Assembly (NCBI GenBank): GCA_965112155.1
Contig: OZ218100.1
DNA from: Podarcis liolepis
Taxonomy: Eukaryota
Length of the DNA: 64,000 bases
Reading direction: 5' to 3' (one strand)
Positions 5,036 through 55,830 of the stretch are shown here, piece after piece. The position numbers and the translations under genes are program-made. Below the pieces are notes generated by a model. That model saw nothing but the letters and a program-made list of their open reading frames with translations, had not been told where the DNA came from and made no database searches. The first letter of the stretch is position 1. Each line of letters opens with the position of its first letter.

Positions 5036-7679
5036 TTGATGCAAGAGTTGCAAGATAATGATTATGAACAGTGCTTTGACCACTTGACAGTGCCTTACAA
5101 ATGTTAAATGATGTGATATTAGTACTTGAACAAATATTAGTACAAGGGCATTTGGCTGGGAAACTGAGTTGCCCTTCAGCAAACACAAATCCTAGGATGG
5201 GAGCCCTTCTACCATAGACTGATGACACATTCTAGAAGAATGCTGTGCTGTTGGGACCATTGATCATGTTGTTTTGATATTGGAGTACAGAATTGTGGCC
5301 TATAAGTCCCAAAAACATTTGTGTTCTTCAGGATTCTGAGTTAAATGGCCAAACTAGAAGTTGGCAGCCCCACTTCACAGAAAAGAAACTGGAGTTCAAG
5401 GACAGTTAAGTTACCCTAGCAGGCTGGCCTTTGAATGAGTGATAGAGCAAGGTGACAATTAGGTTCTCCACATTAGGTTGCATTTTTTTAAAAGTCCTTA
5501 TGAAAATTTGACCGCATTTTAGTGCTTATCTCTCATAATATGTTTTTTTACATACAAGTTTCCTTAATATATTTAATACATTTTCACTAAAATATGCATA
5601 TTTATGCACACTTTTCCCCAATGCACATGTTTTAATACAGTTTATGGATAGAGAACTGCATGGCAAAATTCAGAGTTGTGTGCATTTCAAAGGACAGCTG
5701 CATTTCCTTTAGCAAATTGTTTCAGGAAGTGTGAATTAGATAGGTTCTCATTAAAATGCAAACCAAACTGAATTTCTCCTGCATCTTTACTTTGAACTCA
5801 GGGCTTCTTTCCACCTTCGCATCCACGGTCTGTACCCAAGAATGAATGAGCTTATACGGACATAGCATACCTCTGTGAACTTTCCAAGAGAAGGTGGGTA
5901 TTATTCTCAGCATTTTAAAGCAGGAAGCAATTAAGGCTGTCCTTATAAACATAGGGACAGGAATGAACCTAGATGTCCTGGCTCACTCTGCAATTTACTA
6001 AATCTAATAGCTTTTCCCAGCATAAGAAAAACCACCAGATGGGGACTGTAGCATCATCAAATAAATGAGGGATCTTCACTTAATGATTTGCCATTGCTTA
6101 TAAGCATAGCATTCTTAAACTGAGGGAGACTGGAAAATTCAGTGATTACCCTGGCTGAACTCTTATGAGCTTTTATGAGCTTCAGATTGAGACATTCTTA
6201 ACATCAGTCCAGGCCATCCTTAGATAGTCAAGTAGAACAGGCTCTTAGTGGTTAGTGGAGAGGATACTGAGGTATTGGCCTTGGTTACTTTGGGCATGAA
6301 ATATATGCTGTCAAAAATCCAAGGTAGTCAAATGTAAACTTTGCATGTTGTTGGTATTTTATTTTTTATTTTTTAAAAATAAATTGCTTTATATGTTCTC
6401 AGACTATTGAGAAGGAATCTGTATTTTTCCAGTATTCCAGCTGTTTCAGATTGTGGCTACAATTCTGTTCACAGGCTGTAATACTCTGGATACTTACCTG
6501 AGAGTAATCCCTATCAAACTCTTAGTCTTGCATCCAAACACAAGCATAGGATTGTCCCGCATATTTTTTTTATATTGATATTACTAAGTGCATAGTTGCT
6601 GCCTTTATTTATCTTTTCTTCTTCTCCCACATTATAATTTCCTAATCCTGAAGGTTCATACAAGACCTTGTATTTTCCCTTGCGTACAACACTGTTACAA
6701 TTTCACATCTGGCAAGGTACTGAGGAGGGAATCTTTTAAGGCTGTTTGTCTTAAGGTGCTTAACAAAATTGTGCAGCTGTATTGTAGTGCTTATAGGCTC
6801 TTACTGCTCTTCTGAAACCTTTGGACAAAAACCCAAATTGCTCCAGACCAGCCCTGTTTAACATCACAAGACAGGTTGTTGTTGTTGTTGTTGTTGTTGT
6901 TTTACTAAAGATGAAATATTCAGGTGAGAAGTTTACTGAACTTGATTTATGTATAGAATATCCCTGAAAATTGACAGTCTATCTGATTTGTTTTTCATCC
7001 TCCTAGTTTTACCATTGTGACAACTGAAGGCAGAGAATAGAAAAAGGAGGTCAGTGGGCAAAGAGTTGGGGTGGGCGAGACCCCTGGAGTATTAAAGTGA
7101 TTTAACCAGTTTATATTAATGGTATAGGAGGGAGTTTTTTGGGGGGTCCTCAAAGCATAGCAGGCAATGGATGTGCCATATTGCCGTATGGTTTCAGCTA
7201 TCAACATGTCTAAATTTAGTTTTGCTGTTAACATTTTATGATTTAGAAGGCTATAACTGCAGCATAGTAGCAAAACAGCCATCATTCCCTTGGCTCTATT
7301 TATCAGGCTTCCTCTCTGCAAGGCTTCCCGTTATAAAACAAATTGGGGGGGGGGGGACAAAGTGAACAGGATTGAAGGGAGAGACAGGTACTATTTCAGT
7401 CTTTCATTTTTTGTTCCATCTGGCAAGTTATAAGAATAAAGATACGGATAAGCCACTTTTGAATAGTCTGTTTTTCAGGTGAAAGTGGAATCCAAATATA
7501 TAGCTTATTGGCTTCACCAGTGACAGCTAAAGATAGCCCAAGAAGCATGTGTGTGAGATGTAGTTTGACATCTGCTACTCAAAAACTAGCTGGATGTTTA
7601 TTATGCTGCAGGGAAGATATTCCACGTGCTGCAGTCGTTTGCTAAGTAGAAAGCAGATATAACATGCAAAGGTCTAGCA

Positions 7680-12531: not shown

Positions 12532-14050
12532 CCTATATGGGAAAGACATGTTTTGTTGCAGCCGGGGCAGATGAAAGCATCTGCTTACACTGATGCTTTC
12601 GTATTCAGAAGTGTTAGAAAAGTGAGAGCGAGAGGAAGTCAGGGCGAGGAAAAGTTGTACAGAAACATATCAAAGGATCGATTCACATATATCCTAGAGC
12701 AGATGACAAATCTTGGAGATGTGGGACAACAGGAGTGAAAATATCACGTTTGGTGTATGTGTACTAAGTTGTTCTGGGAGTTAGTGTTGGTGAACACCAA
12801 GGAAATGACAGGTTGTAGCAAAGCAGGCCCCATTAATCATTTTGTTTGGTAACACAGAAAATGAAGTAAACAGGGTGAATAGAGAAATGCTTACTTATGT
12901 ATTTACGGCTGTCAGAATGGCAGTCTGCCAAAAGTGGGAACAGAAAGAATCTCTGACACAAGAAGATGGTTGAATGGGATATGGGATACATGCTGAAGCT
13001 GACGGACAGGATCAAAAACAGAGAAGGTTGGCAAGGGAGTAAGAGCTTTATTGATAGATTGTCATTGTTTATTATGGATTGGAATAACAAAGTGCAACCG
13101 TATAACTTGCTGGGAGATGGGTAATAGATGACTGCAAATGTTCACTACTTCTCTTCAGTTTCCCTCCTCCCTTGTATAAAGCATATGGCATTTACTCTGT
13201 ACAGTATGTTTTTTAACCTCTGTATCTCACTTATGTTATGGATTAACACAAACAATTATAAGCTTGTATTACAACTTACTGCCATTTATTTTTAGTTTTA
13301 AAAATGAGGGGATTTATTTATTTTTTAAGAGCATTTTAGAAGGGAGGCATTTTTCAGGACTGCCAAAAATGTTCACAGGAAACTGAAGCTCTAGTTTCCA
13401 TGACTTGCTAGAAGACTTTTAAAACCCTTATGTTTTAGTGACCTTTAAAAGTCCCATCTGAAAACGTTCTTGCTGACTCTTCTGCAATTCTTTTTATTCA
13501 CTGTATGCTACCTTTTACAGCCTCTGTGATGAACACAAAGCTAAAGGGATTAAAATGGAGTTGATGGGTTGCCAAACCACTGGATGTTTTTTTTCTAAAC
13601 TACATTTATTTTTGCTTCTCTAGTTGTCCTTTGTCGCCCATCTGCTGGAATCCTCTTCTAGATAAGACCCATTACAAGCAAGTATTAGGCCATGGACTGT
13701 GCCTAGTCATTGACTATCATCTTTGTGCAGAACAATGGGCAGGAAGGTTACCCTCTACCTACACATCTAGACCCTGAGGAGTAACAGGAAGCACTGTGGA
13801 AAAAGGCATGCTGGAGCCTGGTATTTTTTGTGGTATTTTTTACATAAAGTGTGCTATTCATGTAGAAATGTTAACCCAAGTAAATAAAGCAAATCCAACT
13901 GTAATATTATTACTAATGCAGTGGTACCTTGGTTTACAAACTTAATCCGTTCCAGGTATCCTTTTGTCATTAAGTATAAAACACATTCATAAAATGTGTT
14001 CAATGAATTCCAGTCATTCTCTTTATAACTGGGACTTCCACAACTTTATT

Positions 14051-14872
14051 AGTCGGATCCTCCATCATGGAGGGCACGTGTTGTGGTGAGATCACCAGGA
14101 ACTGCATCCCTGTTGTGTGGTGGGACCGTTTGGATGGCCACAACACCTCATTGGTTACCCCTCTGTTGCTGGGGCAGAAATTTGGTCAGTTGGGTTGGCT
14201 ATTGGCTGCTGAGGGGCTACTTAAGCTGCTGCACATCGCTGGAGAGTTTCACTTTCTTGCAATGTGCAGCGGATCACCCGCCCTCCTCTCCCTATATTTA
14301 GGGTTGTTCTTATGACCTTGCTATGCCTGTATAGGGGTCGACTGTTTTGGAGCAGGGGCCCAATAGGAATTTTGCCATTTGGCTGATTGGCTGGTTCCAC
14401 TTGGTTTTTGCCTACCGTGAAGCAAATTGTCACAACTTTGTAAGGTTGGTGGTTAGGAATTTGGTTCAATGTTTTGGGAAGGGGACATGGTTGGCTGTGC
14501 CTGCCCCTCCATTGTTGTTGCTAGGGAATTACATTAAAGGAATCCAGGGGCTCACCTTGCTTTTGTCCGAACCCTGTCAAGGGGCTAGGGCCACGCCAGA
14601 GCCCCTGGGAGCATCTGGGGTGAGCTGTGAGATCAAAGCCATTTCTTGCTCCCCCAGGTTGCTTTCCCTTACTGACATATGGTGATGCCCAGTGTCAGTC
14701 CTGTTCCTGTCACTGTGCAGGTTCAGGTAGTCTGGAACCAATGCCTAAGCAACCACTCACATGCTGTAATCAATAAAGTTGTGGACAAAATTTAATGCCA
14801 AAAACCTTAAACTAAAATCTGTGTCTTTTATGTCTTCATTTGGGGGTGGTTTTGGGGGGTCTTCACATGCAA
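14051..14872 (+). mobile_element. Solo A-spacer-B unit of an Ngaro-like YR retrotransposon (no ORFs)
   Basis: 5' part has gcacgtgttg 23 nt from the start, as in the A end of the 42206-48690 element; 14312-14440 is homologous to the spacer at 24362-24480; 3' part aaccaatgcctaagcaaccactcaca...aataaagttgtgg...aaaaaccttaaac matches B of the minus-strand element; ends cacatgcaa (family end CACGCAA). Confidence 0.8.
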
Positions 14873-22277: not shown

Positions 22278-23027
22278 ATGAGAGCAGCACTTTTAATGCA
22301 GCAAATGGGAAACAAGAGAATTTCCTTTTCAGCAGGGATCTCGTACTTTTGTAAAACATTTTTCGAGAAGGACCCCTGCGCAGCCTTCATTGTGCGCAAA
22401 ACTCTGGAGGGATGGCGTAGGCAGCAACCCCCATGTGCGGACAGGAGGCGGCCTGTAACTTATGAAATTCTGTTTAAGATTCACAAAGTTCTTCGTGAAA
22501 TTTGCTGGTCAAAGCACGAAGCGCGTTTATTCTCAACAGCGTTTTCCATTGCTTTCTTCGGCGCCCTACGCGTAGGCGAGGTAGTATGTGAAGGGGATGC
22601 CAGCCAATCTCAGAGGGGAATTTTGATGAGCGACCTGACCCTGTCTAGAACCGATCTCATAGTGCGGGTGCGGAGCTCTAAGACAGATCAGCAAGGCAAG
22701 GGGGCCCTGCTCCGGCTGCCGGCAGCCCACGGGAAGGGCCCTTGTCCGGTTCGGGACACTAGGCGTTTTCTTTACCTAAGGCCTAGCGGCCCTGGTCCGC
22801 TGCTGATACATGCGGACGGATCCCGCCTTACTAGACACCAGTTCACTAGGGTTATGCGGTCGGCATTGTCGGCCTGTGGTTTCCCGGCATCAGAATTTGC
22901 TGCTCACTCCTTTCGTATTGGCGCAGCCACCACTGCAGTACATATGGGGCTCCCCACGGAGAGGATTAAGGACTTGGGGAGGTGGAAATCTAACGCGTAC
23001 AAAGCCTATGTGAGAAGCAACTTGTGA
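22278..23027 (+). CDS. Tyrosine recombinase of the YR retrotransposon, N-terminally truncated; first ~18 codons are host flank
   Basis: Catalytic motifs GALRVGE (R), SKTDQ (K), HSFRIG (HxxR), GRW, AYKAY (Y). Confidence 0.9.
   Translation: MRAALLMQQMGNKRISFSAGISYFCKTFFEKDPCAAFIVRKTLEGWRRQQPPCADRRRPVTYEILFKIHKVLREICWSKHEARLFSTAFSIAFFGALRVGEVVCEGDASQSQRGILMSDLTLSRTDLIVRVRSSKTDQQGKGALLRLPAAHGKGPCPVRDTRRFLYLRPSGPGPLLIHADGSRLTRHQFTRVMRSALSACGFPASEFAAHSFRIGAATTAVHMGLPTERIKDLGRWKSNAYKAYVRSNL
22288..22330 (+). repeat. Left copy of 43-bp target-site duplication
   Basis: cacttttaatgcagcaaatgggaaacaagagaatttccttttc, identical to 24872-24914. Confidence 0.92.
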
Positions 23028-23076
23028 CTGCGTGTTGCACCCCTGACCTCCGCCCACTGTTCTATTTGCTTTTCAG

Positions 23077-23657
23077 AACCCACGAGACTGCGCATTTGGT
23101 TGGTGGGCCACAGCATCGTGCACTGGGCCAAGTTTCATGCCTTGAGAAGCGGTCTGGGCGGCAACCTGAGTTTACATCCCAGGGTGGAGCTGGTTTGGAT
23201 AGCGCGTAGAGGGATGCGCTGGAGTGAATTCAAACCAGCCGTGATGGCCAGGGCTGCGGCCGAGGGTCCGCCTGACGCCCTAGTGATTCAATTGGGGGAA
23301 AACGATCTCGCTTATCGCAAGGCGATCGATCTGAGGTGGCACATTTTTGATGATCTGACCGAGTTGGTAATTGCATACCCTCATATCACAATAATTTGGT
23401 CCTCGTTGCTTGAGAGGAGGACATGGAGAGACTGCGTGAGCCCAGTAGGTGTCAACAAGGCGAGAAAGGTTTTAGAACGAGCGGTGGAACGTAGAGTGGC
23501 AGCTCTGGGCGGGTTCGTCATCAGACACCCGGGCATCCAGTTCAGCAACGAGGCCCTCTACAGAAGGGATGGCGTGCATCTGTCTGATGCAGGGAACGAC
23601 CTATGGTTGGGTGATATCATAGCGGGGATTAGGTCCTGGGTTCAGGGGTTCCCATAG
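23077..23657 (+). CDS. SGNH/GDSL-family hydrolase ORF of the element; no ATG upstream of the catalytic block I, preceded by a splice acceptor
   Basis: Blocks IWLVGHS, RRGMRW, QLGEND, DGVH; acceptor ctgac...ttctatttgcttttcag ends at 23076. Confidence 0.85.
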
Positions 23658-23713
23658 CAGGGCGTAGGAATTGGTTACAGGTTTGAAGGTATTGGCGGCG
23701 AGCCTTGCTCGAG

Positions 23714-24096
23714 TGGCGGTTAGGCATTGGCTGGGGTTCAATTGTTATGCAAATGGATGGGGGGGAAGGAATGCCATCACCTTCCCCCAGGAAATGGGGT
23801 AGTCCGGTACAGGACTCCGAGGGGCGTTGTCTTGTCCGAAACCTACCTAGGTAAGGGCCCCCGGCACGCCCCAAGCGGTGACACCCGTGGGATCCTAGTT
23901 GGCGTACTCCAACGGGGGCCTCCCACGGTTAGTGTTAACCCTTCCCGGACATCCTGCCGGGTAGCGGATAGGAGCCAATGCCTAGGGCCAATACCTTCAA
24001 TTCTCTAATCAATAAAGTTGTGGCCATTTCATGCCCATTAAACTTAAACATCGTGTCCTGTGTCTTTCTTTCTGGGGGAGGGGTTTTGACACGCAA
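23714..24096 (+). repeat. Split direct repeat B1 (383 bp) with AATAAA at 24011-24016
   Basis: Matches 24489-24871 at an offset of 775; ORF translations 23727-24008 and 24502-24783 are identical. Confidence 0.92.
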
Positions 24097-24335
24097 AGCC
24101 ATTTCTGACCATAAGGGAGGAGAGGGGGTTGCGGTCTAGCCCCTCCCCCCCAAGCGCGGGGGCTGACCTTGGCCCCCGCGAGAGTTGGGGGAATCCCTGG
24201 GCGTGCTCGCCACCCCGCCCGCCTATCGGCGGGCCGGGGGGAGGCGTGGCTTAGGGCATTTAAGCCTGGCACGCCCAGGGTCCGCCCTCTTCACTCCCCG
24301 ACCAGCTGAGAGGTTTTCCCTTCCCACCCACCCTT
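24097..24335 (+). repeat. Internal A2 repeat (copy of the element's promoter end)
   Basis: Follows the B1/A2 junction cacGCAAAgcc; GC-rich with TATA-like catttaag at 24257-24264; positional similarity to A ends of the other two elements; A1 is lost in this copy so the 3' limit is approximate. Confidence 0.65.
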
Positions 24336-24362
24336 AGACGTTTAGGTAGCCGTAGGTAGTCA

Positions 24363-24480
24363 TGACCTTGCTATGGACTTCGGTTGGTCGCCGCAAGGGG
24401 CCTGGTAGGAATTTTTCCAAGTTGGCGATCTTCCGCCAGTTGGTTTTTTCGCCTACCTCGTAGCAAACCGTCACAACTTT
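24363..24480 (+). ncRNA. Predicted structured RNA element (four-way junction with ENE-like U-rich internal loop) in the A2-B2 spacer
   Basis: Nested helices, cUUCGg and cGCAAg tetraloops, GGUAGG-AAUUUUU-CCAA...UUGG-UUUUUU-CG-CCUACC; architecture conserved at 14313-14440. Confidence 0.6.
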
Positions 24481-24488
24481 CCCTGTAT

Positions 24489-24871
24489 TGGCGGTTAGGC
24501 ATTGGCTGGGGTTCAATTGTTATGCAAATGGATGGGGGGGAAGGAATGCCATCACCTTCCCCCAGGAAATGGGGTAGTCCGGTACAGGACTCCGAGGGGC
24601 GTTGTCTTGTCCGAAACCTACCTAGGTAAGGGCCCCCGGCACGCCCCAAGCGGTGACACCCGTGGGATCCTAGTTGGCGTACTCCAACGGGGGCCTCCCA
24701 CGGTTAGTGTTAACCCTTCCCGGACATCCTGCCGGGTAGCGGATAGGAGCCAATGCCTAGGGCCAATACCTTCAATTCTCTAATCAATAAAGTTGTGGCC
24801 ATTTCATGCCCATTAAACTTAAACATCGTGTCCTGTGTCTTTCTTTCTGGGGGAGGGGTTTTGACACGCAA
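24489..24871 (+). repeat. Split direct repeat B2 with AATAAA at 24786-24791; element 3' end CACGCAA
   Basis: Copy of B1. Confidence 0.92.
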
Positions 24872-24914
24872 CACTTTTAATGCAGCAAATGGGAAACAAG
24901 AGAATTTCCTTTTC
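24872..24914 (+). repeat. Right copy of 43-bp target-site duplication
   Basis: Identical to 22288-22330; starts immediately after B2. Confidence 0.92.
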
Positions 24915-38650: not shown

Positions 38651-39569
38651 GAATCATAGAATCATAGAGTTGGAAGAGACCACAAGGGCCATCAAGTCCA
38701 ACCCCCTGCCAAGCAGGAAACACCATCAGAGCACTCCTGACATATTGTCAGGGAACTTACATCGGAGCTAGAGGCGGAGGGAAGGCTCTCAAATGATGCT
38801 GGAGAAGGGCCCAGCAGGGAGAGAGGCAGCTCCGCAAATGGGGAAGCAAATCAGCGCAACACCAGGGATATAGAGGGGCTGATGGGGAAATCGGCGAGAG
38901 GGCTCCAGGTCTCTTCACCTGACACCAGCGGGGAGAGCACGGGTCCTCCGCTACCCACGCCCACCCTGCGCAGAAGACTTCCACGCAGAGAGAGTAGGAG
39001 GAGACTGGGTGTCAAACAACTTTTATGTTGGAAAAGATTTAAGAAACGCCCACTGACGGATTCTGCTAGCGACTGAGGCAGCCACGAAGTGAAGGGCTGC
39101 CCAGACTGAAAGGTTTAGCAAGGCAACAAAGCCTGGAGAGGCGGCAACTTACGCACGAGCAACCCATACACATTACACATATGGTTGTCAAGCCTCTGCT
39201 TAAAGACCTCCAAAGTAGGAGACTCCACCACACTCCTTGGCAGCAAATTCCACTGTCGAACAGTTCTTACTGTCAGGAAATTCTTCCTAATGTTTAGGTG
39301 GAATCTTCTTTCTTGTAGTTTGGATCCATTGCTCCGTGTCCGCTTCTCTGGAGCAGCAGAAAACAACCTTTCTCCCTCCTCTATGTGACATCCTTTTATA
39401 TATTTGAACATGGCTATCATATCACCCCTTAACCTCCTCTTCTCCAGGCTAAACATGCCCAGCTCCCTTAGCTTTTCCTCATAAGGCATAGTTTCCAGGC
39501 CTTTGACCATTTTGGTTGCCCTCCTCTGGACACGTTCCAGTTTGTCAGTGTCCTTCTTGAACTGTGGTG
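38651..39569 (-). mobile_element. 5'-truncated young CR1 LINE interrupted by a solo LTR
   Basis: ORF 39115-39576 nearly identical to the C-terminus of the CR1 ORF at 54520-55527; (ATTCTATG)n tail. Confidence 0.93.
38746..39177 (+). mobile_element. Solo LTR (432 bp), probably Gypsy-type
   Basis: TG...CA termini; 5-bp TSD catat (38741-38745, 39178-39182); removing it restores the CR1 sequence cctgacatatggttgtc. Confidence 0.85.
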
Positions 39570-42206: not shown

Positions 42207-42642
42207 TTGCGTGCTGAGGTCCCACAAACATCCCTAACCCAATAACTCACACATCACACATCATTTTTGTTTAAGGTTTTTGGCATAATTTTGGCCACAA
42301 CTTTATTATCATACAAATTGTGAGTGGTTGCGTAGGCATTGGTTATGACTAGCTATCCCCCCCCGCCTTGGGGGATAGCACTGACTCCCGTATTCCAGCG
42401 CGAGTCAGTGTGGAGGAGCAACCTCAGGGCAACTGGGGCTGCGACACAGACCCTACAGTTCCTCCCTGCTTGCTCCTTGGGGTCTTACGCGGCCCGCACC
42501 CGGCACCACGGGTTTGGACAAGGGGGATGGTAAGCCCCAGAATTCCTTTAACGGAATTCCCATTCAGCAGCAGCATTGGAGGGGTAGGCACAGCCAATCC
42601 ATACCCCTCCACCAACCAATTTGACCAAATGCCTAACCGCCA
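42207..42642 (-). repeat. B terminal region (single copy) with AATAAA at 42307-42302
   Basis: Starts tggcggttaggcatt and contains aataaagttgtggcc, as in B1/B2 of the plus-strand element. Confidence 0.8.
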
Positions 42643-42671
42643 CCCGAGCCCTTAAGCTCGCCGCCAACCAC

Positions 42672-43246
42672 TCACAAGCCAAACCACACCCTCAACCCGG
42701 ACACCACTGTCCCCAACCACACATCATTCCCAACCAATGAAAGATGAACCCCATCATCCCTGTATAATTCAGCAGCTGTGTAGGATATACGAGGGTGAGG
42801 AATCACCAATCCACCCATGCCCACCACCAACTTGCCCACCGCGGAATTAATCCGCTTCCTAACTCTCTCGGTGGATGCTGGGCAGGGACTCCCCCGCCAA
42901 ATGCGGCGTTGAAGCAACTGAGACCAAATTAAAGTGGTATCAGGCACCATGGCCGACAGATCCCTTAAGTCCTGCAAAATGGCCATACGTAGCACATAGC
43001 AAGAAGAGGAAACCAAATCATTTTCCCCTAGCTGCACCACGATCGCCGAAGGAGGGCCAAGCCGGAGAACACGTCTTTGCATAAGCGGCAAGAATTCCCT
43101 CCAGCGCATCCCCCTTCTGTAAATCCAGGACACCTGCACGTGCTGTGGAAGGCCCAGGCCAGCTCCCAATCCAGACTGACGAGCTCTGACAGCAGCCCAA
43201 TGCACGATACTGTGCCCGACTATCCAGATACGGATAGTCTTCACAC
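42672..43246 (-). CDS. SGNH/GDSL-family hydrolase (ORF track 42672-43295; likely entered by splicing at 43246)
   Basis: IWIVGHS, RRGMRW, QLGEND, DGVH; homologous to 23077-23657. Confidence 0.87.
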
Positions 43247-43281
43247 CTAGGGTTAAAACAGAACATAAGTACACAGCCACA

Positions 43282-44145
43282 TTATTTCCGCACATAAGCT
43301 TTGAATGCCTCCGACCTCCACCGACCCAGGTCTTTTATCCTCTTTACCGATAACCCCCAGTGGGCAGCCGTCGTCGCAGCACCAATCCTGAAAGAGTGGG
43401 GGGCGAACTCAGATGCCTGAAGGCCGCATGCCGCCACGGCTTTGCGCAATACCTTAGTGAATTGACGGCGCACCAATGGGTGCCCATTTTCATGAACAAA
43501 CAGAGGCCCTCCACCCTCAGGCCGCCGGGCAAGGTACTTCTTGAGATCCTTTACCGGACAAGGGCCACTTTCCCCCGTCGCTGGGAGACGAATAATGGCT
43601 CCCCTCCCTAGCTGATCCGTCTTGGAATTTCTGATATTAACTTGCAGAGCAGACGGAGACACACTCACATCCTGTAGCAACAGGCCCCTGGAACTTCCAT
43701 CCTGCTTGGGCTCGAGGACCACCTCCCCGACCCTCAGGGCCCCGAAGAAGGCTAATGAGAAGGCTGCTGAAAATAAGCGAGCCTCATATGCCGACCAACA
43801 GATGCTACGTAATTTTTTATGCATCTGTGCCAGCAACTCAAATGTGATAGGCCGTCTAGGCACAGGTCTAGAAGGAGTGAGACGCCCCCATCCCTCCAGG
43901 GCTCTGCGTACCACAAATTTCCCACACGGATCTTTGTTGAAGTATGCCCTGCTAAAAAAGGAAATTGCTGCCGAATGAAGGCGCAGCGTCCTGACCGCCC
44001 GGCGCATCTGGAATAGATGCGCCAAATATTTGAGCACCTGAGATGTGGAATGGGGGGCAGTAACTTCCCCTACAACCGCCTGCCCATTAAATAATAAAAA
44101 ATCTGCCCAGGCCTTTTTATAGGACCGCAACGTAGATGGGGCCAC
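43282..44145 (-). CDS. Tyrosine recombinase (integrase); frame is open upstream to ~44270
   Basis: APSTLRSY N-terminal motif, GALRVGE, SKTDQ, HSFRIG, GRW, AFKAY. Confidence 0.93.
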   Translation of the reverse strand: MAPSTLRSYKKAWADFLLFNGQAVVGEVTAPHSTSQVLKYLAHLFQMRRAVRTLRLHSAAISFFSRAYFNKDPCGKFVVRRALEGWGRLTPSRPVPRRPITFELLAQMHKKLRSICWSAYEARLFSAAFSLAFFGALRVGEVVLEPKQDGSSRGLLLQDVSVSPSALQVNIRNSKTDQLGRGAIIRLPATGESGPCPVKDLKKYLARRPEGGGPLFVHENGHPLVRRQFTKVLRKAVAACGLQASEFAPHSFRIGAATTAAHWGLSVKRIKDLGRWRSEAFKAYVRK

Positions 44146-44168
44146 AGATGCAGCTACTCCCTGTAAAA

Positions 44169-45791
44169 CTAATTGCTGCCAAGGTTCCAGAGATGATCCG
44201 GGAAAATTTCCGGACGGTCTCGAGCCAGTGGCGCCAGGGACCTGAACCGCTCCATCTGAAAACGGGACAGAGCGTCAGCAATCTCATTAGATATGCCCGG
44301 TACGAAACGAGCAGAAAAAACAATGTTACAACGCAAACAATGTAATACAAAAACACGCAGCAAGGCAGATACCCTGGGAGATCGTGAAGACTGCTTGGCT
44401 AGTATATTCACCACCGCCTGGTTATCAGACCAAAAACAAACCCGATGGTCCTTGAAATGCTCAACCCACAGATGCACGGCCACTACAATGGGGAAAAACT
44501 CGAGAAAAGTTAAATCCCGAATTATAGCATCCCCACACCAAGCCGAAGGCCAGCGCTCAGCACACCACCTGCCATCCCAAAACAGACCAAACCCAAGGGA
44601 TCCCGCTGCATCTGAATGCACCTGGAAGTCATTGTGGAGGTTCAAAGTGTCCTGCCACAAGGACACACCATTGAAATCCTCCAGGAACTCCAACCAGATG
44701 TTAAGATCAGCCCGCACCTGACTAGACAGGCGCACCCTATGCTGCGGAGCCTGCAAACCCGCTGTGAGCCTGGCCAGGCGGGAGCAGAAAGGTCGCCCAG
44801 GGGCGACAACCCTGCAAGCAAAATTCAGATGACCTAGCAAGGACTGCAGCTGCCGTAAAGTAACCTTTTTTAACGGAAGCAAGTCCTCAATGACCTTCCT
44901 TAATGTACTAATCTTATCCGCTGGTAAGCTAGAGGTTTGGGCCACGGTATCCAGCCAGATACCCAAATAAGTCATTTTCGTAGAGGGACCTTCAGTCTTT
45001 TCCACCGCCAACGGAACACCTAACTCTTCCGTTAAAGAGGCAAAAGACTGCAACAACACAACGCAGTCCCCTGTATTAGACGCTGAGGCGACCAAAAAAT
45101 CATCCAAATAATGAGTGACCCCGCCCAAACCAGTTTTGTAACGCAGGGCCCACTCCAAAAATGAACTAAAACACTCAAAAGCTGCACAGGCAACAGAACA
45201 CCCCATGGGCATGGCCTTATCGAAGTAAAAACTACCTTCGAACTGGAAACCGAGTAACCAGAAATCACTAGGGTGAATTGGAAGCAGCCGGAATGCCGAC
45301 TCAATGTCGCATTTGGCCAGGAGGGCACCAGGCCCAAACTTCCGGATCATCTTGATCGCGTGATCAAGGGAAGCGTATTTCACCGAACAAAGCCCCGGGG
45401 GAATTACGTCATTTACTGACGTGCCTCTAGGGTGAGAAAGATTATGAATGAGGCGGAATTCCCCAGGGGCCTTCTTAGGGACTATCCCCAAGGGTGAAAT
45501 ATGCAGATTAGAAAAAGGTGGGACAGAAAAGGGGCCGGCCATACGATGTAAAGCCAGTTCTTTCTGTATTTTCCTGCGCGCCACTTCTGGCATTTCTTTT
45601 ACTGATTTCTGGTTAACAAGTCTCCCAGATATAGGGGCTGACGCCACAGGAATCCTGAAGCCTGAGGAGAAGCCCTCACGCAAATAAGACGCCGCTTCCT
45701 TATCAGGGTATCGCTCCAATAAAGACAATAACGGCTGTAGCCGTACTGGGGTATAGGCCAGGGAAGACAGGATACTATTTTCCTGTTCCAA
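44169..45791 (-). CDS. Reverse transcriptase/RNase H, DIRS/Ngaro type
   Basis: SPLGIVPKK, FRLIHNLS, AKCDIESAFR, MPMG, YLDD; RNase H acidic motifs SDAAG, LEFFP, SDN, ADALSR. Confidence 0.95.
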   Translation of the reverse strand: MEQENSILSSLAYTPVRLQPLLSLLERYPDKEAASYLREGFSSGFRIPVASAPISGRLVNQKSVKEMPEVARRKIQKELALHRMAGPFSVPPFSNLHISPLGIVPKKAPGEFRLIHNLSHPRGTSVNDVIPPGLCSVKYASLDHAIKMIRKFGPGALLAKCDIESAFRLLPIHPSDFWLLGFQFEGSFYFDKAMPMGCSVACAAFECFSSFLEWALRYKTGLGGVTHYLDDFLVASASNTGDCVVLLQSFASLTEELGVPLAVEKTEGPSTKMTYLGIWLDTVAQTSSLPADKISTLRKVIEDLLPLKKVTLRQLQSLLGHLNFACRVVAPGRPFCSRLARLTAGLQAPQHRVRLSSQVRADLNIWLEFLEDFNGVSLWQDTLNLHNDFQVHSDAAGSLGFGLFWDGRWCAERWPSAWCGDAIIRDLTFLEFFPIVVAVHLWVEHFKDHRVCFWSDNQAVVNILAKQSSRSPRVSALLRVFVLHCLRCNIVFSARFVPGISNEIADALSRFQMERFRSLAPLARDRPEIFPDHLWNLGSN

Positions 45792-47304
45792 CGGCTGGCA
45801 CCTGGGGAGCAGCTTTAGGGGGCTGCTGAGAGCCCCCTCCTTTTCGAAAGGGACGCCGTCCCGCTACACACGCAGAAGCCGGGTGATTCCCTGAGCACTT
45901 CTCACACGTGTGGGAATACTTGCATGGCTGGCGTTGGCAAACACCCCTGTTAAAGTCCCAACAAAACAACCTGCGCCCCGTCTTTAGAGGGAGCGCCTTG
46001 AATCTCTGTGGATCAGGGGTCTTTTTATCAATCCTGGGGGCCACATAAGTAGACCAAACGTCCAGGTCCTTCCTGTCCCAGCGAGCCGTAGGAATCTTGG
46101 CTGCCCTACGCCTAAAATTCTGGTCATAGGCCAATGCAGCGGCCTCTCCCGCCATCGTAAAGGCAGAACGCACTATGGACAGGTACACCCATAGATGCAA
46201 AGATCTCCTGGGATAAGCTGCGGAAACCACTCCAGCAAAAACCTGAAAACTATCCATCCAGCGTTCGAAAGTCCTATCTGCCTTAGCTACGTACGTACGC
46301 TTTTTTGAGGTAGAAGAGCCTCTATCCAAAGGCTCCTGACCCTCAAGTGGAGGAGCCAGGCTGAAAATGTCCACATACCGCCCATTCAATATCCGGGACC
46401 GCAGTTTAGTGGACAAGTGGGCCCCCGGGATAAGATCCCTGGCCGAATTGGTGGAGACTCTTACGTCAGGAAGCAGAACCCCCTCATGGCACTCTTGCAC
46501 TGCCCCATACCGTGCCCTATGGGAATTCACCCTGCGCTCCCAGATCCACTTAGGAAGCCCTGAGCTCTCACCGAAACCCCAATAAAGCTTAAGGGAAGCT
46601 TCCTCATCACTAGAGGAACTCAAGGACGAAGTACCTGAGGAAGAAGAGGATGACGTGTCTCTCCGTCTCCGCTTTGCGCGCCTCTTGGAGGCCTTCTTCC
46701 GGCGACGGTGCCCACCAGAGGAAGCCCTTGGAGGTGGGGGAAGGCTATCCTCCACGGAAGACTCGGACCCATCACCCTCCTGCGCCATACCTGGAACTGA
46801 CTGAAAAGAGACAACCTGTGAATGACCCGGACTCACTCTCCCGGCCGCAGAAGACTGCACTGTTGCGGTACCCTTACGATGGCCCCGGGTCAACCCCCTC
46901 CTCCTGGCCACAACTCTAGAGCGGCCACGACCCCTAGGTGCGGCCACCTGCGACACAGGTAGAACCGGGGGCTGAGGCAGCTGCACCACTGGAAGGCAAC
47001 CCCCTGCCAACAATGATTCGCTCTCCTCTTCACTAGACAAAGCCCCCGGGGAGGAGACACCCCCAGGAGGAGCCAGCATCGCTGATGAAGTCGAAGGGGT
47101 TGAGCAGCGGTGCAAGATGCCATCCATCTCCGCTTCAACCCGCGCCAGTGCTGCCGAGTCGCCAGCCAAACTGGAGACCATAGATTGGATGCGCTTCAAA
47201 GACTGGCCAGGCACAGGAGAGCGAAGGGCCTGAGACGGGCCTTTTATAGGCCTTTTTGTAGCAGGGGCAGGAACAGGCCTCTTTGTTGCCTTCTTTGGCG
47301 CCAT
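45775..47304 (-). CDS. ORF1, gag-like protein
   Basis: 509 aa; low-complexity basic/Ser-rich N-half, core RILNGRYVDIFSL...LAYDQNFRR, C-terminal Cys/His finger CWDFNRGVCQRQPCKYSHTCEKCSGNHPASAC. Confidence 0.88.
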   Translation of the reverse strand: MAPKKATKRPVPAPATKRPIKGPSQALRSPVPGQSLKRIQSMVSSLAGDSAALARVEAEMDGILHRCSTPSTSSAMLAPPGGVSSPGALSSEEESESLLAGGCLPVVQLPQPPVLPVSQVAAPRGRGRSRVVARRRGLTRGHRKGTATVQSSAAGRVSPGHSQVVSFQSVPGMAQEGDGSESSVEDSLPPPPRASSGGHRRRKKASKRRAKRRRRDTSSSSSSGTSSLSSSSDEEASLKLYWGFGESSGLPKWIWERRVNSHRARYGAVQECHEGVLLPDVRVSTNSARDLIPGAHLSTKLRSRILNGRYVDIFSLAPPLEGQEPLDRGSSTSKKRTYVAKADRTFERWMDSFQVFAGVVSAAYPRRSLHLWVYLSIVRSAFTMAGEAAALAYDQNFRRRAAKIPTARWDRKDLDVWSTYVAPRIDKKTPDPQRFKALPLKTGRRLFCWDFNRGVCQRQPCKYSHTCEKCSGNHPASACVAGRRPFRKGGGSQQPPKAAPQVPAVGTGK

Positions 47305-48489
47305 TCCTGTAGCTGGTATAATAAAGCAAAATTAATCAACAAGGAAGAACAAACAATAAAATTAAACAATAAAGAAGTTTTGTTTTATTATATTATTACT
47401 ATTAAGTGGAAGGTAAGAATGGCTGAAAATAAAATAAAATAAATTAATAAATGACCAGCAGGCAAGCTGTGACCAGTCGCTACTAAACAGTGCAATACTT
47501 GGCCACCAATGAAACAGGCTGCAAAACCAATGCAATTAACAACCAGCAGTAAAAGCCACCACCAGCGTTGGCTATTGCCTCACAACCCAACAAGTGACAA
47601 GGCCTGCTGTTAAGCACAAGCAGGCCTGGTCGATACCAGGCCTGGCCACTAGAGGCCGCTGCTGCACCAGAAAGGGGACAAAATGGCGCTCCCGCCAAAA
47701 TCGCCTCAAAATGGCGGACCTGCCACACCCCACCTAGGACAAACCTACAAGGTAAGAAAACTGGGGCGAGGTCAGCGCTGAGAGGAGCCCCAGGCCCAAG
47801 GCCACACCGGCAAAGGGTCAGGCGATCGCGGGGCGCGTGGGTGCTGCGCAGAGCCGCCGATTCCCCGGCCCCGTCCCCCGCGCGCTAGGCAAGGCCGCCC
47901 GAGCCTCCGAGCCCCGCCCTGGAGGCCGACGGGCACCCGCGCGCCAAGGCCCTGGTCCTACCGCTCCAAACGGGGCCCGAAATCGACGCAAGCCGGCAGA
48001 AACCGCCCCGCCGCTCAGCTGAGCCAGGGGACGCGTCTAGGGAAGCCGCTCGGCGCGCCGCCCCCACCCGCTAGCCCCCGACGAGATCGGGATGGACCCA
48101 GGAGTGGGAGGGAAACGGAAGGCCCGATCCGGGCCGAGGAGCGCCGGGCGATCCCAGAGCCGGTAGGCCCCGCGGAAGGTGAACTGCGCGGCGCAGCAGG
48201 GCTCCACGCGCACCGAGGCGCGCCCCGCATGGGAGTCTAGGCACCCCGGCCCGGGCGCCCAGCCGCGATCCGGCTGCCGGCTGCCCGGTCAGAAGCCCCC
48301 CTCCCCGGCAAGATGAGGTATTAAATATGAGGTGAGAGAAAATTAAATAATGAGCAAGGGATAAGGAAACAGGAGGGAATTAATACAACAAATTAAAAAG
48401 GAGAAATAAAGAGTAGAAATAAATCAGGGGAGAAGAGTACAACCAGTCTCTCGCTGTTCACTCCGATACAGATGATCCAGTGTCCACAG

Positions 48490-48686
48490 CGAAAGAGAAA
48501 GGAACAAGCTGTGCACCTTGTATAAATAACCTCTGATCCCACCCATTAAATTGGCAACATCAATTTTTCCCTAGTAACAACAACCACCAATCTGACCCAA
48601 GTCCCTTGCAACAGCCTGGCTAGTAACTGAGGATGCTTGTCCGGCCCCATCCGCAACACGTGCTCTCCTCTTAGTGAGAACACGCT
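48490..48686 (-). promoter_or_regulatory. Putative Pol II promoter in the A terminal region
   Basis: TATTTATA at 48528-48521, CCAAT at 48554-48550, E-box CACGTG at 48657-48662, pyrimidine-rich initiator-like tract ~25 nt downstream of the TATA. Confidence 0.5.
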
Positions 48687-54194: not shown

Positions 54195-55830
54195 CATGGC
54201 ATGTTCATCCAAATGACTTGGATGAAGGAATTGACAGGATGCTCATCAAATTTGCAAATGATGCCAACCTGGGAGGGCTAGCCAATGCCACAGAAGACAG
54301 TATCAGGATTCAACATGACTTTAACAGATTGGAGAACTGGACCCAAACTAGCAAAATGAATTTCAATAGGGACAAATGTAAGGTTCTGCACTTAGGCAGG
54401 AAGAACCAAATGCACAAATAACAAGGAGGAGGAGGATGACACCTGGCATGCCAGTAGTACAAGTGAGAAGGATCTAGTGGTCTTTGTAGTCCAGAAGCTT
54501 GTCATGAGTCTACAGTGTAATGCAGCAACAAAAAAAGCTAATGCTTTTTCAGTGGATTTGTAACTGGCTGACTGACCGAACCCAAAGGGTGCTCATCAAT
54601 GGTTCCTCTTCATCCTGGAGAAGAGTGACTAGTGGGGTGCCACAGGGTTCTGTCTTGGGCCCGGTCTTATTCAACATCTTTATCAACGACTTGGATGATG
54701 GACTCAAGGGCATCCTGATCAAATTTGCAGATGACACCAAACTGGGAGGGGTGGCTAACACCCCAGAGGACAGGATCACACTTCAAAACAACCTTGACAG
54801 ATTAGAGAACTGGGCCAAAACAAACAAGATGAACTTTAACAGGGAGAAATGTAAAGTATTGCACTTGGGCAAAAAAAATGAGAGGCACAAATACAAGATG
54901 GGTGACACCTGGCTTGAGAGCAGTACATGTGAAAAGGATCTAGGACTCTTGGTTGACCACAAACTTGACATGAGCCAACAGTGTGACGCGGCAGCTAAAA
55001 AAGCCAATGCAATTCTGGGCTGCATCAATAGGAGTATAGCATCTAGATCAAGGGAAGTAATAGTGCCACTGTATTCTGCTCTGGTCAGACCTCACCTGGA
55101 GTACTGTGTCCAGTTCTGGGCACCACAGTTCATGAAGGACACTGACAAACTGGAACGTGTCCAGAGGAGGGCAACCAAAATGGTCAAAGGTCTGGAAACA
55201 ATGCCTTATGAGGAACGGCTAAGGGAGCTGGGCATGTTTAGCTTGGAGAAGAGGAGGTTAAGGGGTGATATGATAGCCATGTTCAAATATATAAAAGGAT
55301 GTCACATAGAGGAGGGAGAAAGGTTGTTTTCTGCTGCTCCAGAGAAGCGGACACGGAGCAATGGATCCAAACTACAAGAAAGAAGATTCCACCTAAACAT
55401 TAGGAAGAACTTCCTGACAGTAAGAGCTGTTCCACAGTGGAATTTGCTGCCAAGGAGTGTGGTGGAGTCTCCTACTTTGGAGGTCTTTAAGCAGAGGCTT
55501 GACAACCATATGTCAGGAGTGCTCTGATGGTGTTTCCTGCTTGGCAGGGGGTTGGACTTGATGGCCCTTGTGGTCTCTTCCAACTCTATGATTCTATGAT
55601 TCTATTCTAGGCTGCATCAACAGAACTATAGTGTCCATATCAAGGGAAGTCATAGTACCGCTCTATTCTGCCTTGGTCAGATCACACCTGGAGCACTGTG
55701 TCCAGTTCTGAGAACCACAGTTTAAGAAGGATATTGACAAGCATGAAGGTGTGCAGAGGCAGGCAAGCAAGATGATTCAGGGTCTGGGAACTAATAATAA
55801 TAATAACAACAACAACAACAACAAACAACA

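Follow-up and report, generated by a model that had tools for sequence, protein, structure and literature searches.

Probable one-ended insertions with anchored host duplications in an Ngaro-type retrotransposon of Podarcis liolepis

Anatomy of the truncated copy

The window, as the whole stretch of 64,000 nt of Podarcis liolepis DNA analysed here is called (assembly GCA_965112155.1, contig OZ218100.1), contains a 5'-truncated copy of a tyrosine recombinase (YR) retrotransposon lying between two copies of a host 43-mer (Table 1). Specifically, positions 22288-22330 and 24872-24914 are identical across all 43 nt, confirming the duplication described in an earlier note on this DNA, and the first 31 nt of the 43-mer occur twice in the 1.57-Gb assembly, both times at this locus. 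The insert corresponds to positions 5678-8220 of L031, a full-length copy of the same family, from which it differs by 3 substitutions (99.88% identity), and represents the 3' 2.54 kb of the element. Its 5' end falls within the YR gene and its 3' end is the family terminus CACGCAA (position 24871), 80 nt past AATAAA, with no poly(A) or other tail at the 3' end of this copy; on each of these points the reading made from the letters alone is upheld. At the right joint the last two bases of B2, AA, stand in place of the AG of the target, and the junction of B1 with A2 within the copy is an internal copy of the end-to-end junction. The truncated YR frame retains what we take to be the R, K, HxxR, W, and Y motifs.

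Table 1. Features of the truncated copy and of other elements in the 64,000-nt window
Feature	Position	Strand	Remarks
Target core dinucleotide	22286..22287	+	AG here; most of the group's insertions have AA (sequence and core tally)
Host 43-mer, left copy	22288..22330	+	Starts immediately 3' of core; single copy in empty alleles
2-nt microhomology TC	22329..22330	+	Common to host and element at truncated 5' joint
YR gene, 5'-truncated	22331..23027	+	About 103 first codons of frame absent; Pfam Phage_integrase E=1.8e-4, under curated cut-off
Open frame of 261 codons	22242..23027	+	Host flank in frame with truncated YR, to which it would contribute ATG codons
SGNH/GDSL-type hydrolase frame, stop to stop	23028..23657	+	Pfam Lipase_GDSL_2 E=2.7e-4, under curated cut-off
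Split direct repeat B1, 383 nt	23714..24096	+	Ends CACGCAA; 100% identical to B2
Split direct repeat A2, ~221 nt	24097..24317	+	Matches A1 of full-length L031
Unrepeated spacer between A2 and B2, ~170 nt	24318..24488	+	From comparison with L031
Split direct repeat B2	24489..24871	+	AATAAA at 24786-24791; exact terminus
Host 43-mer, right copy	24872..24914	+	Identity to left copy; junction contig in run X15
Older solo A-B repeat	~14050..14870	+	Another Ngaro subfamily
Second, divergent Ngaro element	42207..48686	-	Frames for gag, RT/RH, YR, and hydrolase; each end has an AA core
Inverted pair of LINE-like fragments	39177..39569 and 55121..55513		98% identical, 15.5 kb apart

The element and its family

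The full-length copy L031 (8,220 nt) belongs to a young family and has the layout A1-gag-RT-YR-hydrolase-B1-A2-B2, with split direct repeats in which A1 (positions 1-223) equals A2 and B1 (7063-7445) equals B2; the window copy retains B1, A2, and B2. Profile searches of L031 gave matches to RVT_1 (E=1.4e-13), Phage_integrase (E=3e-4), and a SAM-like domain (E=9e-4), the last two under cut-off, while the YR of the second element of the window lies above cut-off (E=1e-7). A hydrolase ORF is present (Lipase_GDSL_2, E=2.7e-4), as in some Ngaro members, and the four L031 ORFs gave no match at E<=0.05 to any methylase family, which would have pointed to DIRS/PAT. Two published accounts give the Ngaro layout as A1-[gag, RT/RH, YR, hydrolase]-B1A2B2 and describe solo AB repeats (PMC8547959; PMC7192593). 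By its predicted frames and repeats, the element is an ordinary Ngaro member (order DIRS, hydrolase-bearing type), sharing with Ngaro the layout, the solo AB repeats, the short core at both ends, and the lack of a real target duplication (54 of 55 two-ended copies). Two details differ: A2 and B2 are set apart here by the spacer of about 170 nt, unlike the B1A2B2 arrangement of Ngaro, and the core is 2 nt (AA) as opposed to the trinucleotides cited for DIRS elements in PMC7192593.

Elements of this type are abundant, with 8,222 matches to one B-repeat motif in the genome. Many long Ngaro copies, several with nested LTR elements, lie on contig C20 (L041, L044, L045, L050, and L230), which dominates the list of gag-RT matches. 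The second element of the window possesses A1 and a single B only, the form expected if B1 and B2 collapse.

The empty site

At this locus, contigs from seven of the 24 listed sequencing runs were compared (X1, X2, X3, X4, X5, X15, and X16). In runs X3, X4, and X5, contigs are continuous from the left flank, over one 43-mer, to the right flank and list no alternative letter at 22287, and in runs X1, X16, and X2 contigs join 22287 directly to 24872. In other individuals and species, then, the empty site holds one 43-mer only, in place of the two pre-existing copies that would have explained the repeat, and it reads GCAG/CAC (the slash marking the insertion point) in X3, X4, and X5, as the earlier note had it. 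The 3' junction of the insertion is present in run X15 as a 57-nt contig at depth 68; the 5' junction is in none of the listed contigs of the seven runs, X15 included. X15 and X16 derive from one sample, possibly the source of the assembly, and X16 was not counted as independent because, if the word length of the assembly is <43, a contig that skips the insert may, even in a carrier, be a graph path over the 43-mer. Runs of the same species label diverge from the window on the left flank to differing degrees, the extremes being X1, with 3 differences over 585 nt, and X15, with 16 over 620 nt.

Recurrence of the scar

Loci were collected from the young family (29 loci examined) and, by their B1-A2 junctions, from sister families (84 new loci from 100 listed of 197 matches, and 27 more). 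In all, 126 loci entered classification and 123 were classified, to which the first 40 listed of the 8,222 B-repeat motif matches were added. The pattern proposed from the window copy was found, in the same or mirror-image form, in six further copies: among 12 resolvable copies truncated at one end, seven have a duplicated host segment, from 6 to ~1,550 bp long, beginning at the exact end; this end is the 3' one in five of them and the 5' one in two, the mirror images (Table 2). By comparison, such a duplication flanks one of the 55 two-ended copies (Fisher p=7e-6 vs 7/12), and that one, L156, lies in a 177-bp satellite, its flank repeat being set aside. Within the young family alone the scar is found at 4 of 29 loci. 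These rates of recurrence are rough, as the sample is partial and the copy on contig C6 came from a targeted search.

Table 2. One-ended copies with a host duplication anchored at the exact end
Copy	Exact end	Duplication	Microhomology at truncated joint	Remarks
Window copy	3'	43 nt	2 nt	
L226	3'	60 nt	1 nt	Element 100% identical to L140
L124	3'	394 nt, 1 mismatch	None clear	
L225	3'	6 nt beyond core		
L048	3'	6 nt beyond core		Joint ambiguous by 2-3 nt
L038	5' (mirror)	~30 nt, on the left	3 nt	Only 17 nt of the 7.7-kb element lost
C6:89.24 Mb	5' (mirror)	~1,550 nt, on the left, two repeat-length indels	1 nt	Cut in YR gene

No tail is found in any of the five 3'-exact copies. Over the 2,080 nt of the five long duplications taken together there are a single substitution and two repeat-length indels, and all five copies bearing them are young, their B or A repeats being 99.5-100% identical where both exist. 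An anchored duplication is absent from the remaining five of the 12 one-end-truncated copies (L041, L178, L206, L228, and L229), some of which adjoin apparent later insertions, and from three older clipped solo-type copies (L061, L077, and L083); counting these, the proportion is 7/15. Copies that were nested, had both ends truncated, or gave no clear reading (L042, L045, L050, L125, L126, L130, L133, L137, L224, and L230) did not enter the 7/12 count, nor did three whose 5' end was not identified (L082, L085, and L089) or two without a usable junction (L121 and L134). A decoy test of the right-anchored search on 1,500 swapped pairs gave two scoring at least 19 (19 and 43), probably shared repeats, under a search that imposed no condition that the match end at the truncation joint.

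Two further flank repeats were set aside. The long repeat at L231 is a tandem of elements, and that at L063 (C1:2.346 Mb, a solo A-B with both ends exact) is ~290 bp long and 90% identical, begins 15 bp to the left of the core, and was interpreted as an earlier tandem duplication. The copy L224 (C7:80.28 Mb), apparently within another Ngaro copy, is clipped at both ends (by ~24 and 7 nt) and shows a 38-bp repeat plus a short tandem at its 3' joint.

Of 16 deletion or truncation breakpoints in the family, five, among them those of the window copy and of the C6 mirror copy, cluster in 163 nt close to where the YR gene begins (L031 positions 5622-5785, corresponding to ~22330-22440 of the window and the sequence just upstream; post hoc P ~0.003), a segment in which no unusually stable hairpin was found. 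Separately, internally deleted copies with both ends exact (L009, L013, L033, L046, L047, L123, L127, L132, and L136) have their breaks mostly at or inside the A1 end (~135-230), where 5' UTR swaps between subgroups are located also (L034-L037 vs L031), and together these breaks and swaps suggest template jumps at the A1 boundary.

The target core

In the 55 two-ended copies the flank repeat is 2 nt long in 46, 1 nt in 3, and 0 in 6. The final dinucleotide of the left flank is AA in 46, AT in 4, GA in 2, AG in 2, and TA in 1, while the right end is AA in 55/55, and from this tally the core is defined as two bases, AA. The GCAAA core of the earlier note is accordingly replaced by a shorter one; similarity upstream of AA is weak, with no adjacent match in 28 of 46 copies. 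Beyond the core, the two-ended copies show some further target preference: base -3 is A in 2/55, base -4 is T in 0/55, and the first base 3' of the element is G in 4/55.

The exact ends of the one-ended copies conform to the same rule, six of the seven lying at a target AA (background 0.096, p=5e-6), although at the 3'-exact ends the target AA could alternatively be end-joining microhomology. Since AG, AT, GA, and TA mismatches all occur in normal insertions (AG itself in L152 and L197), a mismatch does not block two-ended insertion, and an imperfect core was rejected as the trigger of one-ended events: a mismatch is present in 1/7 one-ended as against 9/55 two-ended copies (Fisher p=1.0).

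In all nine mismatched cores the host dinucleotide is on the left and the AA of the element on the right (9/9; p=0.004 if two strands segregated equally). This one-sided fate may be a hint of single-strand transfer, and the 9:0 asymmetry seems to fit one exchange better than the two of the double-stranded-circle model. It is not decisive: mismatch repair with a bias would leave the same asymmetry, and so would an unstaggered cut if AA were preferred for binding.

Proposed mechanism and alternatives

The reading that we favor, with a probability of roughly 0.6, is that one junction of each scarred copy would have been made by the YR, whose role we infer from the positions of the exact ends, and the other by host repair copying the empty sister chromatid or the same molecule. 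In the window copy, the exact right end would have been joined to the chromosome by the element's own YR at an AA-type core, and the left end, broken or incomplete, would have been joined by host repair after 43 bases of the empty target had been copied. The event would take place during or right after integration, while one target strand is still intact or the sister chromatid still empty; the host end lacking element DNA would be extended, copying 6 to ~1,550 nt of the empty site, before being joined via 0-3 nt of microhomology to the element's free end. For a target L-core-R, normal insertion yields L-core-[A...B]-R, Type I yields L-core-R'-[truncated...B]-R, and Type II, the mirror image, yields L-core-[A...truncated]-L'-core-R, and both types require copying across the empty site. 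The earlier note had suggested a one-ended YR exchange at an imperfect core completed by host repair; the seven copies lend support to the one-ended, YR-like, and host-finished part of that suggestion but not to the imperfect core as its cause, given that six of the seven have a perfect AA.

Several observations bear on when the copying occurred and from what template. Firstly, the left 43-mer of the window copy is preceded by the AG of the empty site while the right joint has the AA of the element, which indicates that an empty template was copied. Secondly, the single substitution in 2,080 duplicated nt, set against a left-flank divergence of at least 0.5% among runs, favors the sister chromatid or the same molecule over the homolog; so few substitutions have P=3.5e-4 at 0.5% divergence, and the argument weakens at 0.2% heterozygosity (P=0.08). 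Additionally, this low count and the loss of only 17 nt in L038 fit an event during integration better than later repair from a homolog.

The strongest competitor, which we nevertheless consider improbable, retains an ordinary YR and places the accident later: a normal two-ended insertion breaks inside the element, and one end, cut back by resection as far as the flank, copies the empty homolog over the site and rejoins the remaining element end. Such abortive gap repair is familiar from P-element and Ac/Ds work. It would account for both mirror forms, for tracts as long as 1.5 kb, for the short microhomology, and for the AG that was kept, and it agrees with the finding that mismatched cores are not enriched among one-ended copies. 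Once both sisters are filled, however, it needs the homolog as template, which sits poorly with the near-identity of the duplications; a random internal break is unlikely to cost L038 so little of its 7.7 kb; and all five long cases lie in young copies.

Less probable again is that end joining captured linear single-stranded cDNA at a staggered break already present, the YR taking no part. The cDNA of DIRS-1 is described in PMC7192593 as single-stranded and mostly linear, and most truncated joints show 1-3 nt of microhomology, as this scheme would have it. Against it, the exact ends of the one-ended copies, both 5'-exact copies included, lie at AA-type cores like those of normal insertions, staggers of 394 and ~1,550 nt are hard to obtain from a simple break, and the exact joint of the window copy was made without microhomology (AG vs AA).

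It is very improbable that a LINE or Penelope enzyme acted on Ngaro RNA through target-primed reverse transcription (TPRT). The hallmarks of TPRT are 5' truncation, target-site duplication, and 5' microhomology, all of which the window copy shares with 5'-truncated LINE copies, and fragments of LINE-like RT are to be found in the window. The Ngaro scar differs in its lack of a tail in the five 3'-exact copies, its targeting to AA cores, an element end 80 nt past AATAAA that is probably beyond the end of the mRNA, and its mirror forms: L038 and the C6 copy keep an exact 5' end and are truncated at the 3' end, a product that TPRT cannot yield. These two copies exclude TPRT as a common cause, in keeping with the doubt already voiced about LINE trans-mobilisation, and for the window copy alone it could hold if an RNA ended exactly at CACGCAA. 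An assembly artefact, or insertion between two pre-existing 43-mers, would suit the missing 5' junction in X15, the run with the 3' junction, but is scarcely credible beside the single 43-mer of the empty alleles, the depth of that 3' junction, and the same design at six other loci.

Returning to YR-made joints finished by host repair, a further and more tentative step would explain why one-ended copies arise. In YR chemistry, free 5'-OH ends swap and are then tested for pairing beside the cut. The Ngaro YR might normally exchange the minus strand only, with replication doing the rest, and breakage of the single-strand intermediate would then give rise to one-ended copies; on this hypothesis the 9:0 asymmetry is the expected trace of a single minus-strand exchange at the right edge of the core. 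In its full form, which we hold to be somewhat less probable than its negation, Ngaro integration would resemble that of integron cassettes: the YR would exchange only minus-strand cDNA, subject to a 2-nt homology check, replication would complete the process, and mirror-scar copies, and with them kilobase tandem duplications of host DNA, would be a routine by-product of breakage (4/29 loci). A minus-strand exchange would match both the single-stranded cDNA of DIRS-1 and the replicative resolution of integrons.

Comparison with other systems

Insertion by one end has a precedent among retroviruses. In aberrant proviruses of ASLV (end mutants) and HIV-1 (partial integrase inhibition), integrase inserts one end and the other, often truncated, is joined by host enzymes, most often duplicating hundreds to thousands of bp of host DNA (PMC5041404). 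The geometry is that of the seven copies described here, with one normal joint and one truncated joint accompanied by a host duplication, but the retroviral case involves a DDE integrase, linear double-stranded DNA, and perturbed cell culture, whereas the present one concerns a YR element and inherited natural insertions, with the scar in both orientations. That the enzyme made a normal joint in the same event is, for Ngaro, a matter of indirect traces, namely the core match, the near-identical duplications, and the 17-nt loss observed in L038.

For the strand question the nearest parallel is the integron, in which a tyrosine recombinase exchanges one strand between attC and attI and replication finishes the process (PMC3458562). 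A one-strand exchange of this kind would account for the one-sided mismatched cores of Ngaro. Integrons differ in being bacterial, in using folded attC hairpin sites, and in having been demonstrated experimentally, while single-strand transfer in Ngaro would be deduced from junction statistics.

No report of one-ended insertions of YR retrotransposons, or of integron-like transfer for DIRS, was found in a search of openly accessible papers, and a term search of PMC9210276 returned no mention of target sites. In 2020 PMC7192593 described the double-stranded-circle model for DIRS as largely untested and YR specificity as uninvestigated.

Significance

The scar is real, recurrent, and informative on the integration step of DIRS-order elements. 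The one-ended Ngaro copies differ from the two-ended copies of the same elements in that one end is truncated and the exact end anchors a stretch of duplicated host DNA, 6 to ~1,550 nt long. A kind of event known for retroviral integrase is apparently to be seen in a YR retrotransposon as well. Ngaro elements, abundant in this genome, accompany duplications of host DNA up to 1.5 kb, and 5' truncation with a duplication does not by itself imply target-primed insertion. Taken together, the mirror-image scars and the one-sided mismatched cores may be regarded as genomic footprints of an integration intermediate, and these footprints give precise predictions as to the strand that would be cut, the position of the cut, and the 2-nt check.
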